UHGV virus genome: UHGV-1961940
DNA: 20,717 nucleotides
Reading direction: 5' to 3' (one strand)
Origin: a virus
In this document: piece by piece, positions 11,952 to 19,996 of the stretch
Numbering within the stretch: position 1 is the stretch's first letter
How the letters are laid out: each line of letters opens with the position of its first letter
The notes under the pieces: generated by a model
Database searches by the model: none
Told to the model about the DNA's origin: nothing
Seen by the model: only the letters and a program-made list of their open reading frames with translations
Made by a program: the position numbers and the translations under genes

Positions 11952-13136
11952 TTAAGCTTTAGCCAAAATGGCGCTAAACTCTTCACCAAACTCTTTTACA
12001 ATCTTCATCAGGTTTGGGTATGCTTTGATCAGCTGAGCAACAATCTTGTCACGCCCTTTACCGATAAGCAAGGCATTTCCTAAGGCATTAGGTTTCATCA
12101 TCGCCATAAAGACTGAGAATACAAAATCTCGGTTCTCGTCCTTGAAGTTTTCCCAAAGGAAATCGAGGAAGTTTGCCACGCAGCTGACAAGATCTTCGTC
12201 TGAGATACTTGCATTTTCCATCATATTGCGAATAGCGATACAACCTTCAGATCCAAGAATCCACAAAATGTCTGGCTGCTTAGGACCTACGTATTCTTTG
12301 CAGCCACCTGCCATAATCCGACCGATTTCCGGTAAATTACGTTTCTTGGTGTGGTAAGTCCAGATCTCTACCGCTGCAGTGTGACCAATAGCACCTTGTA
12401 GAAGAACACGGGCCATAGCGTCAGAAATAATACCGCTGTCAAAATCGTGCAAGATGTCAGATGCAGCAACCCAAGATCGTGGTGTGGCAAAAGATGGACA
12501 ATTAATCTCAGCCATAGCCTCATAATTATCAATAGCTGATGGAACTCTTTTCAGATACCCAATTACAGAGGAGTGAACCCCGTTGAGGAATGCGTAGTCC
12601 TCAATAAACACCTCTGCATTGCTTGTAACCTCTACAATGATAAAACGGTTAGCCAGAGGGGCTTCGAGCGCCGAAAGAACCGCACCATCTGTAGAACGGT
12701 TACCCGCAGCCACAAAAACAGAACCCTTAGGGAATGCATAGGTGCCGCACTTGTGGTCAAGCATAATTTGCATTGCAACCTTTTGCAGGTAGTTATCTGC
12801 ATGAGTGAGCTCATCCAGAAAGATAATTCCGCTCCAGTCAGGATCCGCAGGCCAAAATTCTGGAATTGCAAACACTGTACGTGTAGTTCCATCCGCTTCT
12901 ACAGGGATAGGTAGCCCAGATAAGTCGGCAGGATCTTTATCTGACAGTCGCACGTCAACAAGGTTGTCATCTCGCTCACCGAACATATTATCAGCGATCT
13001 GCTTCATCACCTGGCTTTTACCCACACCCATTGGTCCCAAAATTAGGACAGATCGGCTATGACGTTGGGCAAACTGAATAATAGCTGGCAACTCACGGAC
13101 AGTGATTTGACCACTTTCGAATACGTTTCTTGACAT
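11952..13136 (-). CDS. MoxR/CobS-type AAA+ ATPase (AAA_5-like)
   Basis: Walker A is ILGPMGVGKSQ and Walker B is IIFLDELTHA. The sensor-1 region is VFVAAGNRSTDG, followed by LANRF. This is a single AAA module with a helical C-terminal half. The start is coupled to the upstream stop (TAATG). Confidence 0.85.
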   Translation of the reverse strand: MSRNVFESGQITVRELPAIIQFAQRHSRSVLILGPMGVGKSQVMKQIADNMFGERDDNLVDVRLSDKDPADLSGLPIPVEADGTTRTVFAIPEFWPADPDWSGIIFLDELTHADNYLQKVAMQIMLDHKCGTYAFPKGSVFVAAGNRSTDGAVLSALEAPLANRFIIVEVTSNAEVFIEDYAFLNGVHSSVIGYLKRVPSAIDNYEAMAEINCPSFATPRSWVAASDILHDFDSGIISDAMARVLLQGAIGHTAAVEIWTYHTKKRNLPEIGRIMAGGCKEYVGPKQPDILWILGSEGCIAIRNMMENASISDEDLVSCVANFLDFLWENFKDENRDFVFSVFMAMMKPNALGNALLIGKGRDKIVAQLIKAYPNLMKIVKEFGEEFSAILAKA

Positions 13137-15776: not shown

Positions 15777-16754
15777 ATGAATCTTGAAAAATATTATACA
15801 CCAGAAGAGTTAGAGCGCTTGCTCAAAAAATATAGACGCAAACAGAATAACGCACGGAAACGAGATATAGAGTTCGACCTGTCATGGGAAGAATACCTCC
15901 TATTTGGTAAAAAACTTTTAGGAGATGGAGTATGCGACTATACCCTTATACCTTTTGACATGCACACAGATGAAAACGGGCTGGGGAATCCTTTCTACCC
16001 ATCCCTGGAGCGGATAGATGATGAAGGTCCTTATGCGGTTGATAACTGTTGTGTGGTGGGATTGAGATGCAACTCTCTAAAGGACTGTCTGGTAGATAAA
16101 AAGACTGCAGTCTTGATTAAAGACGAAACTGATCGAAAAATTGTCCAGCAGATGATGCTCCACCTGAGCGAAGAGCGTATGGAGAAATTGAAAGGTGATT
16201 ATACTTTTGAAGATTTCATCTTGCAATATGGAACGGAAGAGGATAAACTAGCACTCTTTGACGAAGAAGAGGAGGAAGATATGCTACCGATGTCTAAAGT
16301 TACTTATCGTGCACCCAAGAAGCACATTTCCGACATTGTAAACGAGCCTATCACAGAAGAGATTGAAGAAATGACGCAACAGGTGCATGAAGAGGAAAAA
16401 GAGACTCAGGAGGTCGAAGAGGAGCTTACAGAAGAGGTTCCTGCACTACCTGATGATGTTGAGATTGCCAAAGCTTACACTTTCTATTGTCAAACGTTCT
16501 ACGATGTAGGTATGAAAGTTGATCTGTCGTTCAGCCAATTTAAGAGTTCGTATATTCGCAAATGCTGTGCTTTAACTGGTGAACGTCTTGGAGCTGGACT
16601 TAAACCCCTGTTGGTGACCGACTGGAATAAAGGTTTCACTAAAGGAAACTTTATGGTAGTATCTCCAATTATGAAGAAAGCTATGACAGATCTTATGAAG
16701 ACCACCCGCATGACAATGACCGAGTTGGCAGGTATTTTCAAACACGTTAAATAA
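15777..16754 (+). CDS. Hypothetical protein with an internally duplicated domain separated by an acidic linker (325 aa from ATG 15777; the track ORF starts at TTG 15711)
   Basis: Two copies of a module are present. The first is RDIEFDLSWEEY...CDYTLIPF...PSLERIDDEGPYAVDNCCVV. The second is GMKVDLSFSQF...CALTGERL...LLVTDWNKGFTKGNFMVV. It resembles small phage HNH-associated, nuclease-like domains, but that assignment is uncertain. The TTG/ATG starts at 15711/15714 lie upstream of the predicted promoter, so the first ATG in the predicted transcript is 15777. Confidence 0.65.
   Translation: MNLEKYYTPEELERLLKKYRRKQNNARKRDIEFDLSWEEYLLFGKKLLGDGVCDYTLIPFDMHTDENGLGNPFYPSLERIDDEGPYAVDNCCVVGLRCNSLKDCLVDKKTAVLIKDETDRKIVQQMMLHLSEERMEKLKGDYTFEDFILQYGTEEDKLALFDEEEEEDMLPMSKVTYRAPKKHISDIVNEPITEEIEEMTQQVHEEEKETQEVEEELTEEVPALPDDVEIAKAYTFYCQTFYDVGMKVDLSFSQFKSSYIRKCCALTGERLGAGLKPLLVTDWNKGFTKGNFMVVSPIMKKAMTDLMKTTRMTMTELAGIFKHVK
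16285..16313 (+). repeat. Right copy of the perfect 29-bp inverted repeat
   Basis: TACCGATGTCTAAAGTTACTTATCGTGCA encodes (LP)MSKVTYRA in frame inside the 347-aa ORF. It is preceded by GAGGAGG and ATG at 16269-16283. Confidence 0.9.
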
Positions 16755-16758
16755 TGAC

Positions 16759-16775
16759 AGGGGCCAATGGCCCCT
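16759..16775 (+). promoter_or_regulatory. GC hairpin between the 347-aa ORF and the VWA gene (possible leaky terminator or attenuator)
   Basis: AGGGGCC-AAT-GGCCCCT forms a 7-bp stem, followed by TCTGGAGTTTTAATG. The first in-frame ATG (16767) lies in the loop. The U-tract is interrupted. Confidence 0.5.
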
Positions 16776-16787
16776 TCTGGAGTTTTA

Positions 16788-18248
16788 ATGGATAGCAGAA
16801 GTTCAGAAATCATTGCCTCGCAGAAAGATGATGCCCTGAGAATGTTGCAGGCTGCACGTATGTATCTCCTTGAAAAGCTGCCGTTTTATGGCACACTACT
16901 GTCAGGGTTGCAGTTCGTAGAAAACCACACATGGTGCTCCACCATGGCAACCGACCATAAACGCATCTATTACAGTCCTGAGTTCATTATGGGATTGGCT
17001 GATGAACGCAAGGCTATTCTTAAGGCTTCTCTAACTGACGAGCAGTTTGAGATGGCTGAAGTTTTCTATTCTCCAAAATCTGTGAAAGAGGTGGCCTTCC
17101 TTCTGTCACATGAGGTGGGGCATATTATCTGTGATCACCTAGTCCGTGGTAAAAGCTTTGAGCCGGAACTGTTCAATATTGCTTGTGATCACGTTATCAA
17201 CACAGGCCTTGTGGTTGACTTTAGCAAACCTCCTTGTGTTTTCTTCCCGAAGGGGAAAAGCACTACGTTCATGAAAGGTAAGCCTTTTGGCTTCTTAGCC
17301 AGCTGCTACTGCGACATGAAGTTTCATGGATGGATTGCTGAGAACGTTTATGCAGTTCTTGATAAGCAAAGAGATCAGAATAACGGTAAAAGTAAGAACG
17401 GTAAAGGTGAGAACTCTCAAAGTGATAAGCGACAAACCGATGATCACATGAGTGGGAACGGTGGCACCAGTGATAATCTTGGAAAGGCTATGGGGTATGA
17501 TCAGCCACAACCTGTAATCAGCCAATCTGATAAAGATCAGGCCATGCAGGACTCTGGTGATATGCTGGAGGCAGCAATGCAAGCGTCCGGAGGCCGTTGC
17601 CCTGAGGCGGTGCGTGAGTTTGTCAAGAACAGAGGTAAGCCTGTAATCAACTATATAGACATCATTAAGCAACGTATGTTGTCTAAAAGAAAGGCCGAAC
17701 TGACCTACAGAAAACCTGGTCGCCGATCTGGGTCTTTGACCAGCACAATGCGAAAAGTTGGGGCTATAAACAAGAACCAGCACGTTATTGTTCCTGGTCG
17801 TAATCCGGAAAACACTATAGATATTGTGGTGGCTTTAGACGTTTCTGGCTCGATCTCTCAAAGAACTTTAAAGAAAATGTTCAATGAAATCACCGGATTG
17901 TGCAATCTGTATAAAGAGTTTAAGGTTACAATGTTCTGTTGGTCAACTGAGGTTGGAGAGGTTAAAGTATACACTCGCGGCAACATAGACGAGATGGTCA
18001 ACTATGAGGTCCACTCAACATGGGGCACAACAGCTGCTTGCGTGTTCGAGTATCTGGATGCCAACATACCTAATGCAAAAGATGTCATCGTCCTGACCGA
18101 CCTATACTTTGAGCATAACTTTGAACAAAAGGTTGTTGACAACAAGTGGAAAAAGTACGATACTCTATGGGTCCTCACTGAGGGGTATAATAAAAATTAT
18201 ATCCCGAGCTTTGGGAAAACTGTGGAATTAATCGAGTACGCTAAGTAA
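16788..18248 (+). CDS. Putative metallopeptidase-VWA fusion protein (DUF2201-like), the typical partner of MoxR AAA+ ATPases
   Basis: The HExxH zinc motif is SHEVGHIICDH in the N-terminal half. A long Q/N/S/D/G-rich linker follows. The C-terminal VWA has the MIDAS motif VALDVSGS. ATG 16788 has a GGAG SD 5 nt upstream. The alternative ATG 16767 sits in the hairpin loop. Confidence 0.85.
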   Translation: MDSRSSEIIASQKDDALRMLQAARMYLLEKLPFYGTLLSGLQFVENHTWCSTMATDHKRIYYSPEFIMGLADERKAILKASLTDEQFEMAEVFYSPKSVKEVAFLLSHEVGHIICDHLVRGKSFEPELFNIACDHVINTGLVVDFSKPPCVFFPKGKSTTFMKGKPFGFLASCYCDMKFHGWIAENVYAVLDKQRDQNNGKSKNGKGENSQSDKRQTDDHMSGNGGTSDNLGKAMGYDQPQPVISQSDKDQAMQDSGDMLEAAMQASGGRCPEAVREFVKNRGKPVINYIDIIKQRMLSKRKAELTYRKPGRRSGSLTSTMRKVGAINKNQHVIVPGRNPENTIDIVVALDVSGSISQRTLKKMFNEITGLCNLYKEFKVTMFCWSTEVGEVKVYTRGNIDEMVNYEVHSTWGTTAACVFEYLDANIPNAKDVIVLTDLYFEHNFEQKVVDNKWKKYDTLWVLTEGYNKNYIPSFGKTVELIEYAK

Positions 18249-18263
18249 GAGAGGAGGTTATTT

Positions 18264-18527
18264 ATGGCAACAGAGTTAAAATTTGCATCAAACCGTAAAA
18301 CTAAGAAGTATCTGTCCTCAGTAGCTCCAGGCACTGTGGTGATGTTTGTTGATGAACTTGGGGATGTGAATACAGCACTTGTTGTAAAATCACATCCTGC
18401 AAACATATATGTTGGGGTATTTGACCTGTTCAGAAAGGTGTTTGTAGAACTGCCTCACAGTTTGGTTGTTACAGAAATGGATGCCTGCATAGAAATTCTT
18501 GGCGAAGTTATGGTGGAGGAACAATAA
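18264..18527 (+). CDS. Small protein, paralog 1 of a four-gene tandem family (87 aa)
   Basis: SD is GAGGAGG. It shares the pattern K..f..G.VV....d......mvV.......fDl......L.....Vte.D..I.IlGE with the next gene. Confidence 0.7.
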   Translation: MATELKFASNRKTKKYLSSVAPGTVVMFVDELGDVNTALVVKSHPANIYVGVFDLFRKVFVELPHSLVVTEMDACIEILGEVMVEEQ

Positions 18528-18790
18528 TGGCTACCAGCATTGTATTCAATTCTAAGGTGAAGAACAAAAAGCGTGCAGACAGTTTTCCGTGTGGGACCGT
18601 GGTAAGTTGCGACGGAGACGGCATTCAAAACATAGTTATGATTGTCAAAACAGGAGAACATTGTGTGTGGGGGTTCGATTTAGAAAATAATGAGTTGTAC
18701 GATCTGCCGCCAAACATGAAAGTTACAGAGCTTGACACCAAAATTACCATCCTTGGAGAGACAAGCTATTCAAAAGAAGGAGGAGAATAA
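18527..18790 (+). CDS. Small protein, paralog 2 (87 aa)
   Basis: TAATG coupling to the previous gene. Same length and pattern as paralog 1 (MAT..., GTVV, FDL, VTE(M/L)D, ILGE). Confidence 0.7.
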   Translation: MATSIVFNSKVKNKKRADSFPCGTVVSCDGDGIQNIVMIVKTGEHCVWGFDLENNELYDLPPNMKVTELDTKITILGETSYSKEGGE

Positions 18791-19053
18791 TGACCACAAA
18801 AATCACTATCGCAGAACCGAAAGCTAACACTCAGCCTATCGAAAAGTTTAAGTACGGTGAGGTGGTAACATTCACACCAGATAATGAAGATGCTAAGATT
18901 TTCGCAATGGTCACAGCTGAGTGGATGTGTGACAACACCACACAGGTTCTGCGTTTTGACACCTATCTTACCGATGAAATCAGGAACGACAAGATTGTGA
19001 CTGGTGTGGATACTGAGATTGTTTTCTACAAGAGCTTTTTAGAGGGTTTCTGA
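18790..19053 (+). CDS. Small protein, paralog 3 (87 aa, more divergent)
   Basis: TAATG coupling and the same length. Retains K(F/Y)..GEVVTF...FAMV...RFD...VTGVDTEI. Confidence 0.65.
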   Translation: MTTKITIAEPKANTQPIEKFKYGEVVTFTPDNEDAKIFAMVTAEWMCDNTTQVLRFDTYLTDEIRNDKIVTGVDTEIVFYKSFLEGF

Positions 19054-19054
19054 T

Positions 19055-19288
19055 ATGGCAAAAATTAGAAAATTATCTAGCAATCAGGTTGTGAAAGACT
19101 TCGAATCTGGAGAGATTCTTTATGTTCGTGATGCAGATGACGAAGGTGAAGATCTCGTTATGTTGGTGGGGCACGCTGAGGACGGATGCATCCAAGCTGT
19201 TTTTCTTGAAACAGCTATGGTGCACTGGATAGAGCTGGACCTGAAAGCACGAAAACCTAAAGCAGAAATCCTGATTTACGAAGATTAA
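19055..19288 (+). CDS. Small protein, paralog 4 (77 aa, most divergent)
   Basis: Starts 1 nt after the previous stop. Retains F.SGEILYV...LVMLV...AVFLE...ELD...ILIYE in the same order. Confidence 0.6.
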   Translation: MAKIRKLSSNQVVKDFESGEILYVRDADDEGEDLVMLVGHAEDGCIQAVFLETAMVHWIELDLKARKPKAEILIYED

Positions 19289-19304
19289 CAAAAAGGAGAT
19301 AGCC

Positions 19305-19754
19305 GTGTTGAGCAAACGTGAATGCGACAGCATTAGCCTGAATTCTTATAAGAAACAATGGTTTGGGGTGGAAGTTTGCCGACTGCGGCTAGGCTCCTAC
19401 CTGAACTTCGTTTATTATGAGAGTGACAGTCGTATCGTTTCTTATGAAGTGTTCTACACTAAGAACACATTCGAACTGCGCCGTAAAGTAGATGGCGGGA
19501 GAACTACCACCCAGAATAATTGGGAAACTATTCTGCCTCCAGATGTTATAGGAAGTCCCCTGAATGTATCTGAAGATGAAAATCTTATGGTTCATGCTAT
19601 GATGGGACTTGACAGCTTAGAGCTGGCAATCTATGATATGTCCATCGAAGCAGTTAAGCTGGACTACATCGAAAACACTTTAGAGGAAGGTATCAAGAAG
19701 TTTCTCAGTGAGAAATTAAAAGACCACTTTCATAAGGAGCTATATCTGTTATGA
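19305..19754 (+). CDS. Hypothetical protein (149 aa, GTG start)
   Basis: AAGGAG SD 6 nt before GTG 19305. No motif recognised. Confidence 0.65.
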   Translation: MLSKRECDSISLNSYKKQWFGVEVCRLRLGSYLNFVYYESDSRIVSYEVFYTKNTFELRRKVDGGRTTTQNNWETILPPDVIGSPLNVSEDENLMVHAMMGLDSLELAIYDMSIEAVKLDYIENTLEEGIKKFLSEKLKDHFHKELYLL

Positions 19755-19996
19755 AGACCCGTAAAGAACGTAACAAAATTTTACCTGGAGCTCTCGAACA
19801 CCTGATGAAGTGCAGATCTATTTGGCACTCTGCCAAGGAAGGGCAGAAGGTGGTTGTGGTTAGTGACAATACCAACCCGTTTGGAGATTATACCACCATG
19901 ATGGCCCCATATGTCCGTGATGGCGTTGTAGAAGTGGTCCCTTACAACGGTTTGCATGAACGGCACTTTGAAAGCACTTTGCTAGTGGAGCTATAG
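19751..19996 (+). CDS. Hypothetical protein (81 aa)
   Basis: ATGA overlap with the upstream gene. It may be a remote relative of the small-paralog family (GQKVVVVSD...VVEVVPY), but this is not established. Confidence 0.6.
   Translation: MKTRKERNKILPGALEHLMKCRSIWHSAKEGQKVVVVSDNTNPFGDYTTMMAPYVRDGVVEVVPYNGLHERHFESTLLVEL

Follow-up and report, generated by a model that had tools for sequence, protein, structure and literature searches.

T4-like phages carry polymorphic accessory slots with sharp exchange borders, among them the internal-protein (IPI/II/III) locus and further hyperplastic regions, and T4 IPI* is a proven anti-restriction protein. Here we describe a comparable locus in a 20,717-nucleotide stretch of viral DNA (UHGV virus genome UHGV-1961940; hereafter the window). 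It consists of four small plus-strand genes, g1 to g4, at positions 18264-19288 of the window, which on the evidence of their sequences appear to be one very diverged paralogous family that the PHROGs database splits into three. Like the slots of T4-like phages, this is one position in a near-identical genome that holds diverged small genes in varying number, with borders at gene boundaries. It shows no sequence relationship to the T4 internal-protein locus, and no packaging signal was recognised in the products of g1-g4.

The window belongs to a Vequintavirus (rV5-like) phage. Its 3' end shares 99.9% identity with Escherichia phage Murica and 90-99% with 117 further records, nearly all of which are named as rV5-like Vequintavirus phages. 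The four genes correspond to Murica gp013-016, every one of which is annotated as 'hypothetical protein' in Murica. Genes 11-26 of rV5 were proposed to form one transcription unit with sigma-70-type promoters, and the rV5 genome paper makes no mention of paralogs (PMC3606486). Searches by accession number found no paper on the g1-g4 proteins. Given their Shine-Dalgarno sites, ratios of nonsynonymous to synonymous substitution (dN/dS) of 0.03-0.2 and conservation in 118 genomes, g1-g4 are real, expressed-looking coding genes of the sigma-70-driven 'gene 11-26' unit of an rV5-like phage.

Layout of the array

The genes and their ribosome-binding sites (RBS) are as follows.

18264..18527, plus strand: g1, 87 amino acids, family A type 1, Murica gp013 (open reading frame; phrog_10698, E 7.6e-43)
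18527..18790, plus strand: g2, 87 amino acids, family A type 2, Murica gp014 (start overlaps the g1 stop in TAATG; phrog_10698, E 4.8e-41)
18790..19053, plus strand: g3, 87 amino acids, Murica gp015 = rV5 gp015 = bas54_0053 (phrog_12861; putative remote member, strongly conserved)
19055..19288, plus strand: g4, 77 amino acids, Murica gp016 = rV5 gp016 = bas54_0052 (phrog_12046; putative most remote member, strongly conserved)
18252..18258, plus strand: Shine-Dalgarno site of g1, GAGGAGG (from the sequence; an RBS is annotated at the matching Murica position)
18515..18519, plus strand: Shine-Dalgarno site of g2, GGAGG, inside the last codons of g1
18778..18783, plus strand: Shine-Dalgarno site of g3, AGGAGG, inside the last codons of g2
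19044..19047, plus strand: Shine-Dalgarno site of g4, within GAGGG, inside the last codons of g3

The positions of the four reading frames, their lengths of 87, 87, 87 and 77 codons and the TAATG overlaps are exactly as described in the original prediction, which was made from the sequence alone. The same holds for the starts of g1, g2 and g3, which are spaced exactly 263 nucleotides apart, and for the start of g4 after a single spacer base. The junctions read TAATG for g1/g2 and g2/g3, and TGAtATG for g3/g4, where the spacer base is position 19054. At these junctions GGAGG-type sites lie 6-10 nucleotides upstream of the starts, each in the 3' end of the preceding gene, which accounts for the Gly/Glu-rich C-terminal tails of the proteins. 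The g1-g4 junctions have the layout of a translationally coupled gene set, with a stop/start overlap or a minimal spacer and the downstream Shine-Dalgarno site within the upstream gene; translational coupling itself is predicted from this layout. The operon junctions that follow are also tight (a 4-nucleotide overlap, then a 2-nucleotide spacer), i.e. tight junctions are found throughout the operon and are not special to g1-g4.

Probable common descent of g1-g4

At the DNA level the identity among the four genes is 47-54% in global alignments and no repeat of period 263 was found in the array DNA, so the low DNA identity noted earlier is borne out. Recent duplication or gene conversion was considered as a source of the array, and is ruled out by the missing DNA repeat together with the saturated synonymous sites between the paralogs.

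At the protein level, g1 and g2 share 39% identity over 82 residues (BLASTP, E 1e-11) and are, judging from their sequences, clear paralogs. There is no significant pairwise BLASTP match of g3 or g4 to g1 or g2. The ordered series of motifs that had been proposed for all four proteins (N-terminal basic stretch, G-x-VV, hydrophobic strand, FDL, V-T-E-x-D, I-x-I-L-G-E) is complete in g1 and g2 only; g3 and g4 lack FDL, and g4 also lacks V-T-E-x-D. Both g1 and g2 match phrog_10698, whose profile they cover over all 87 positions, g3 matches phrog_12861 and g4 matches phrog_12046, each at full length and with E 1e-41 to 1e-60; g3 and g4 have no match to phrog_10698 at E<=1. The three PHROG families occur in Vequintavirus only, carry the label 'unknown function' and are treated as unrelated by PHROGs, whereas the profile comparisons described below link them.

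A profile of family A was assembled from g1, g2, the gp014 type of rV5 and more diverged orthologs from metagenome and genome contigs, and the profile scores were judged against composition-preserving shuffles (n=5000). Against g3 the family A profile scored 18.2 bits, a value reached by 0/5000 shuffles (best shuffle 13.1), with an hhalign P of 1.6e-5 and a probability of 56-74%. Against g4 it scored 8.0 bits (6/5000 shuffles; hhalign P 1.3e-3). When g3 was added to the profile, the score against g4 rose to 17.4 bits (0/5000 shuffles, best shuffle 9.9; hhalign P 1.3e-5 to 3.5e-5, probability 45-80%). The signal grows with the diversity of the profile, with g3 acting as an intermediate, which fits true remote homology. 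Similarity arising from the start codons or from the tails encoded by the Shine-Dalgarno sites was ruled out, since the signal survives trimming at both ends: without the first four residues and the C-terminal tails, g3 scored 10.9 bits (0/5000) and g4 6.8 bits (9/5000).

The natural background points in the same direction. In a set of 263 stop-to-stop segments taken from the window and from related loci, the g3 orthologs were the top matches of family A among the non-members, followed by the g4 orthologs. The family alignments are colinear over the whole protein length, and the neighbouring 149-, 81- and 188-amino-acid proteins gave chance-level scores in every profile test. The 81-amino-acid protein, encoded at 19751-19996, had been put forward as a possible fifth member. 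This suggestion is not supported: the protein scored -0.8 to -1.2 bits against family A and against A plus g3, with 43-64% of the shuffles scoring as high, and it belongs to a different PHROG, phrog_4868. Its sole weak signal was against the g4 profile (15/2000 shuffles).

The profile-profile search recommended in the original prediction thus joins g3 and g4 to family A beyond composition, with probabilities that are moderate and not decisive. The profile-profile statistics, the colinear full-length alignments, the matching predicted small beta-barrel folds and the adjacency of the genes speak for the ancient duplication that had been proposed, i.e. g1-g4 most likely descend from one ancestral gene.

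Predicted fold and charge of the proteins

AlphaFold models were obtained for g2, from the g1/g2 alignment, and for g4, from its own separate alignment. The g2 model has six strands and a mean predicted local distance difference test score (pLDDT) of 68; the g4 model is all-beta with a pLDDT of 69.7. Both match Tudor, SH3, KOW and Sm-type barrels, and their common matches, many in all, include 7de9_A, 6kco_A, 6wau_A, 4qq6_A and 7egs_B. The four core strands of the two models coincide when mapped via the sequence-derived alignment: the strand/non-strand agreement is 69%, as compared to a mean of 49% for circular shifts, and 1/68 shifts reaches the observed value. The small beta-rich fold that had been predicted is in accordance with these models, which are small beta-barrels of moderate confidence. 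The fold evidence, as far as the models go, supports a single family but does not prove it. The C-terminal segment of the g4 model is of low confidence and is encoded by a short, imperfect 14-nucleotide tandem repeat (2.4 copies, 19239-19274) that lies in the 3' part of the gene.

The family proteins are 77-88 amino acids long and acidic, with isoelectric points of 4.4-5.7 and net charges of -4 to -8 (-7 to -9 for the barrel part); g4 is the most acidic (-8). The net charge of the first 20 residues is +4 in g1 and g2, and +1 in g3 and g4. In other words, the proteins are predicted with moderate confidence to consist of a short N-terminal arm, basic in g1/g2 and weakly so in g3/g4, followed by an SH3/Tudor-like small beta-barrel.

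The likeness extends to several known small beta-barrels of the SH3/Tudor/KOW type, for instance the capped Tudor domain of Sds3 (7sxi), the Tudor domain of SMN (1g5v, 4qq6) and the SH3-like domain of uL2, and also to the C-terminal Tudor domain of UvrD/PcrA that binds RNA polymerase (7egs, 5dma) and the RNA polymerase-interacting domain of CarD (4l5g). There are also differences: identity to these domains is 3-24%, mostly below 20%, there is no Pfam profile match, and g1-g4 encode free-standing acidic phage proteins, whereas the SH3/Tudor/KOW barrels are domains of larger proteins. As for KOW and ribosomal uL2, there was no Pfam match at E<=1 for any of g1-g4, and the likeness is one of fold and of g2 only. 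Likewise an LSM or Hfq match in Pfam was absent at E<=1, and the g2 and g4 models are without the N-terminal helix typical of Sm/Hfq proteins. We note that the SH3/Tudor resemblance of the models defines a predicted fold, not family membership or function.

Variation between phages

The array varies between phages in one defined segment.

18276..18788, plus strand: variable cassette, bounded by codon 5 of g1 and by the TAATG where g3 starts; rV5-type phages have a single 85-amino-acid gp014-type gene instead

In 44 of the 118 records both g1 (at least 90% identical) and g2 are present, and 74 of the 118, including rV5, FV3 and Pr121LW, have a single gene of 84-89 amino acids in the first slot. 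This single-slot gene is a third type (gp014), which is 38-41% identical to g1 and to g2. In the one-gene genomes g3 is 98-100% and g4 91-100% identical to the genes of the window. When the window is aligned with rV5, codon 5 of g1 marks a drop in identity from about 98% to about 45%, and the identity recovers at the TAATG that starts g3; with its sharp borders, this is a cassette replacement. The variation occurs within a species, as Pr121LW, which is classified as Vequintavirus murica like phage Murica, has the one-gene version. Copy-number variation, which the original prediction had suggested looking for, is thus present in the form of two type-A genes or one, depending on the record.

A more distant lineage (L005-L007), with 55-70% nucleotide identity to the window in the flanks, keeps four genes, of 88, 85, 87 and 77 codons. 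Its orthologs of g1 and g2 are 58% and 70% identical to those of the window, as compared to 96.5% and 95% for g3 and g4. The same tendency is seen across Vequintavirus, where g3 and g4 show 95-100% amino-acid identity and are among the most conserved genes of the region. Positions 18790-19400 are about 90% nucleotide-identical to L005 (4258-4870) and form an island that comprises g3, g4 and the first 100 nucleotides of the next gene. Synonymous divergence (dS) against L005 is about 0.6 within this island and saturated in the flanks. Judging from the sequences, the island would be either a mosaic block that was exchanged recently or a stretch constrained as nucleotide sequence.

Selection was estimated between the window and L005 by the Nei-Gojobori method, the values being gene-wide and from few sequences. 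The dN/dS ratio was 0.03 for g3, 0.04 for g4 and about 0.2 for g1. Moreover, the dN values of g1 and g2 (0.29-0.30) are inside the range of the neighbouring genes (0.13-0.38), i.e. these two genes evolve at the protein rate of the early genes around them. Neither pair agrees with the diversifying pressure that had been proposed for the array. Its 'strict length and coupling periodicity' is not retained in the relatives either, as these have 88/85/87/77 codons (L005) or 85/87/77 codons (rV5). From the variation data it follows that the exact 263-nucleotide period arose by accident in this lineage, that selection on g3 and g4 is strongly purifying and not diversifying, and that the variability is concentrated in the first slot, via whole-gene exchange and not point-wise positive selection.

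A gp014-type gene that is 61% identical to rV5 gp014 was also found alone, among unrelated genes, in the metagenome contigs L008 (1355-1606) and L009; a contig with the lone gene carries 240 bp that are 85% identical to Krischvirus (RB49-like) phages. As the lone family A gene was seen in two independent assemblies, it seems to move between phage groups.

Distribution of the family

The family is narrow. Sequence searches of Pfam, NCBIfam and the PDB gave nothing above noise for any of g1-g4, and three word-indexed searches returned only relatives above 80% identity. An exhaustive HMMER search of 1.84 billion cluster representatives with a g1+g2 profile yielded three genuine clusters, which correspond to the g1, g2 and gp014 types. 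Four further matches (P0028, P0030-32) were long repeat proteins and were rejected as spurious, since their scores sum many weak stretches. With tblastn against 50,697 phage records the genes were found in one set of 118 records only, and none of those records that were inspected by name or taxonomy falls outside Vequintavirus. Sixteen of the matching records (MG0656xx) are named 'Campylobacter phage', 15 of them with the host Campylobacter jejuni. These host labels look doubtful; the listed records carry g3 and g4 at 96-100% identity.

In a structure search of BFVD with the g2 model, only family A members were significant. The next matches were uncharacterised phage proteins of 70-90 amino acids (Foldseek, template modelling score 0.5-0.7 across almost all of the g2 model, E 2e-3 to 4e-2, 11-24% identity). 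The g3 and g4 models were not among the top 50 matches of the g2 model, which is no evidence either way. The array products resemble the BFVD proteins N4 Gp21, PaP3 ORF.65 and proteins of the phages SU7, 172-1, NJ01 and ECBP2 in being small stand-alone barrels of lytic phages. These look-alikes are without known function; they widen the range of the fold and give no mechanism.

The fold class is already known, and large lytic phages commonly have diverged small accessory genes arranged in tandem. What is new is the link of three PHROG families, the fold assignment and the cassette polymorphism beside a hyper-conserved pair. No unusual mechanism is indicated for the array, and the finding is tidy but fairly ordinary. 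Nevertheless, three PHROG families that are present in every sequenced Vequintavirus would become one family with a predicted fold, which would simplify the annotation of phages that are widely proposed for biocontrol of E. coli O157 and for therapy. The locus is also a natural experiment, in which near-identical genomes differ by a one- or two-gene cassette beside two very conserved paralogs.

Possible roles of the array

Experimental data are available for a relative, Bas54 (MaxBurger, MZ501093), in the form of a transposon-insertion study. Here bas54_0052, bas54_0053 and bas54_0054 were classified as 'Non-essential' on E. coli K-12 (10.1101/2025.11.20.689424), and insertions were recovered in 12/12, 13/15 and 17/17 TA sites, respectively (10.1101/2025.11.20.689424, Extended Data Table 8). 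The product of bas54_0052 is identical to g4 in 77/77 residues and that of bas54_0053 to g3 in 85/87, and bas54_0054 is of the gp014 type. The data cover few hosts and these three orthologs, Bas54 being a phage with the gp014 type in place of g1 and g2. In other words, the orthologs of g3, g4 and the gp014-type gene are dispensable for growth on E. coli K-12, which agrees with the accessory status suggested for the array. The mutagenesis system makes binding partners and host-range effects directly testable.

Small barrels of the SH3/Tudor class commonly act by binding macromolecules. We tentatively favour, at somewhat less than even odds, a general model in which the small acidic barrels are early accessory proteins that bind host macromolecules stoichiometrically. 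The proteins would be made early, most likely to bind a host protein that takes part in transcription, translation or defence. Under this model, the products of the conserved g3 and g4 would have host targets that do not vary, and those of the swappable first slot a target that differs from host to host. As at other junctions of the operon, the tight stop/start spacing would do no more than keep co-expression roughly equal.

Several points weigh against this model and against the single family behind it. There is no binding partner, phenotype or homolog of known function for any of g1-g4. The structure models are of moderate confidence (pLDDT 68-70), come from shallow alignments, cover g2 and g4 only and were compared through the sequence-derived alignment; moreover, the small beta-barrel is among the commonest small folds, so the fold alone proves neither descent nor function. 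The strong conservation of g3 and g4 fits a classical arms-race protein poorly. Finally, the three orthologs are not significantly depleted in the one conditional screen considered, the clinical-isolate comparison of the Bas54 study, with log2 fold changes of -1.32 (q 0.68), +0.33 and +0.46 (10.1101/2025.11.20.689424). The isolate behind these numbers is ambiguous, as the sheet 'resampling_K-12_vs_CFE303' has a command line naming '311' files; the following sheet of the supplement (10.1101/2025.11.20.689424) has identical values for the genes compared. In the same comparison the neighbouring metallopeptidase (log2 fold change -2.20, q 0.009) and MoxR ATPase (-7.23) are depleted (10.1101/2025.11.20.689424), and the MoxR ATPase is named there as one of two genes needed against a predicted defence system, DS-28 (10.1101/2025.11.20.689424; HIDEN-SEQ). 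The host-takeover or counter-defence role proposed in the original prediction stays a guess, the available screen having shown no significant conditional requirement.

In its narrow form, this proposal would have each paralog inhibit a different immune system, with the first slot swapped to match the defences of the local hosts. In its favour, these are small, early accessory genes with acidic products, cassette borders flank the polymorphic first slot, and a different phage background also holds a family A gene. The Bas54 study moreover reports the neighbouring MoxR ATPase as an anti-defence gene and shows it, like the metallopeptidase, to be conditionally required in the clinical isolate (10.1101/2025.11.20.689424). 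Against this stand the same comparison, in which none of the three orthologs is significantly depleted, and the extreme purifying selection on g3 and g4, which show no arms-race variation, as well as the g1 dN/dS of about 0.2; on balance we consider the narrow form unlikely. A bolder version regards the first slot as a dedicated cassette-exchange site, at which diverged family A alleles (the g1, g2 and gp014 types and the copy in a non-Vequintavirus context) are swapped or stacked via the conserved 'ATGGCAACAGAG' start and the 'TAATG' junction. The variants of a polymorphic host factor, e.g. a defence protein, would each be neutralised by a different allele, and g3 and g4 would be conserved partners or act on invariant host machinery. 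We would give this version rather long odds; if it were true, the array would amount to a small module for specificity that is able to evolve and is made up of one barrel fold.

Other explanations concern the relationship of the proteins and the way in which they act. Only g1 and g2 might be paralogous, with g3 and g4 being unrelated small beta-rich orphans whose likeness is compositional or convergent, helped by the shared constraints on small acidic early proteins. The missing pairwise BLASTP matches, the three PHROG families, hhalign probabilities of 45-80% and not above 95%, the failure of the exhaustive g1+g2 HMMER search to retrieve g3 and g4 at E<=0.001 and the frequent origin of SH3-like barrels would all agree with this. 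However, composition-preserving shuffles never reach the scores of g3 or, with the A+g3 profile, of g4 (0/5000 each), a more diverse profile gives a stronger signal, and the addition of g3 strengthens the g4 match. Furthermore, the alignments are colinear over the full length while neighbouring genes are at chance, g3 and g4 are the top two non-members among the 263 natural segments, and the strand positions agree in separately built models, which together make mere look-alikes quite improbable. Nor does a nucleic-acid-binding role seem probable, in which the proteins, as barrels of the Sm/Hfq, KOW or uL2 kind that carry a basic N-terminal arm, would tune early translation or RNA stability: the +4 charge at the N terminus of g1 and g2 would suit such a role, but the proteins are acidic overall and most of all in the barrel part, KOW, LSM and Hfq matches are absent from Pfam even at E<=1, and the models are without the helix typical of Sm/Hfq. 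Tandem paralogs often form hetero-oligomers, and the products of the array could assemble, e.g. into a ring of barrels, with translational coupling fixing the stoichiometry. The stop/start overlaps with internal Shine-Dalgarno sites would favour equimolar synthesis, the g4 model resembles ring-forming Sm/Hfq barrels, and g3 and g4 are conserved together as one block. Nevertheless, there are one or two type-A genes, with about 40% identity between types, beside g3 and g4 that are 98-100% identical, a variation that is hard to reconcile with a fixed, co-evolving complex of all four. A family A gene is also found alone in another context, tight junctions are general in the operon, and single insertions in each of the Bas54 genes are without fitness effect, so that we place little weight on such a complex.

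Neighbouring genes and database annotations

The operon to which the array belongs is on the plus strand and begins at the divergent promoter region that separates rV5 genes 10 and 11. Two genes of the same transcription unit lie upstream of the array (15777..18248).

15777-16754, plus strand: Srd-like putative anti-sigma factor, the first gene of the operon
16767-18248, plus strand: DUF2201 metallopeptidase/VWA protein, directly upstream of the array (Pfam DUF2201_N, E 4e-28, and DUF2201 VWA)

Several RefSeq and PHROG names in this region look wrong or unsupported. Both the Srd-like protein and the DUF2201 protein are called 'HNH endonuclease'. The 149-amino-acid protein at 19305-19754 is named 'tail protein', yet it is encoded by an early-operon gene that is non-essential in Bas54 (bas54_0051).

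The MoxR-type ATPase (11952-13136, minus strand) and the DUF2201 protein (16767-18248, plus strand) are in two divergent operons, and correspond, as judged from gene order and identical length, to bas54_0063 and bas54_0055, respectively; they may function together as a MoxR-VWA pair. The rV5 reference record (L002, NC_011041, 767-2228) shows the DUF2201 gene as two overlapping reading frames, gp012 and gp013. The window, Murica and FV3 have a single gene of 487-497 amino acids at this place, and the split in the rV5 record is probably a frameshift or sequencing error.

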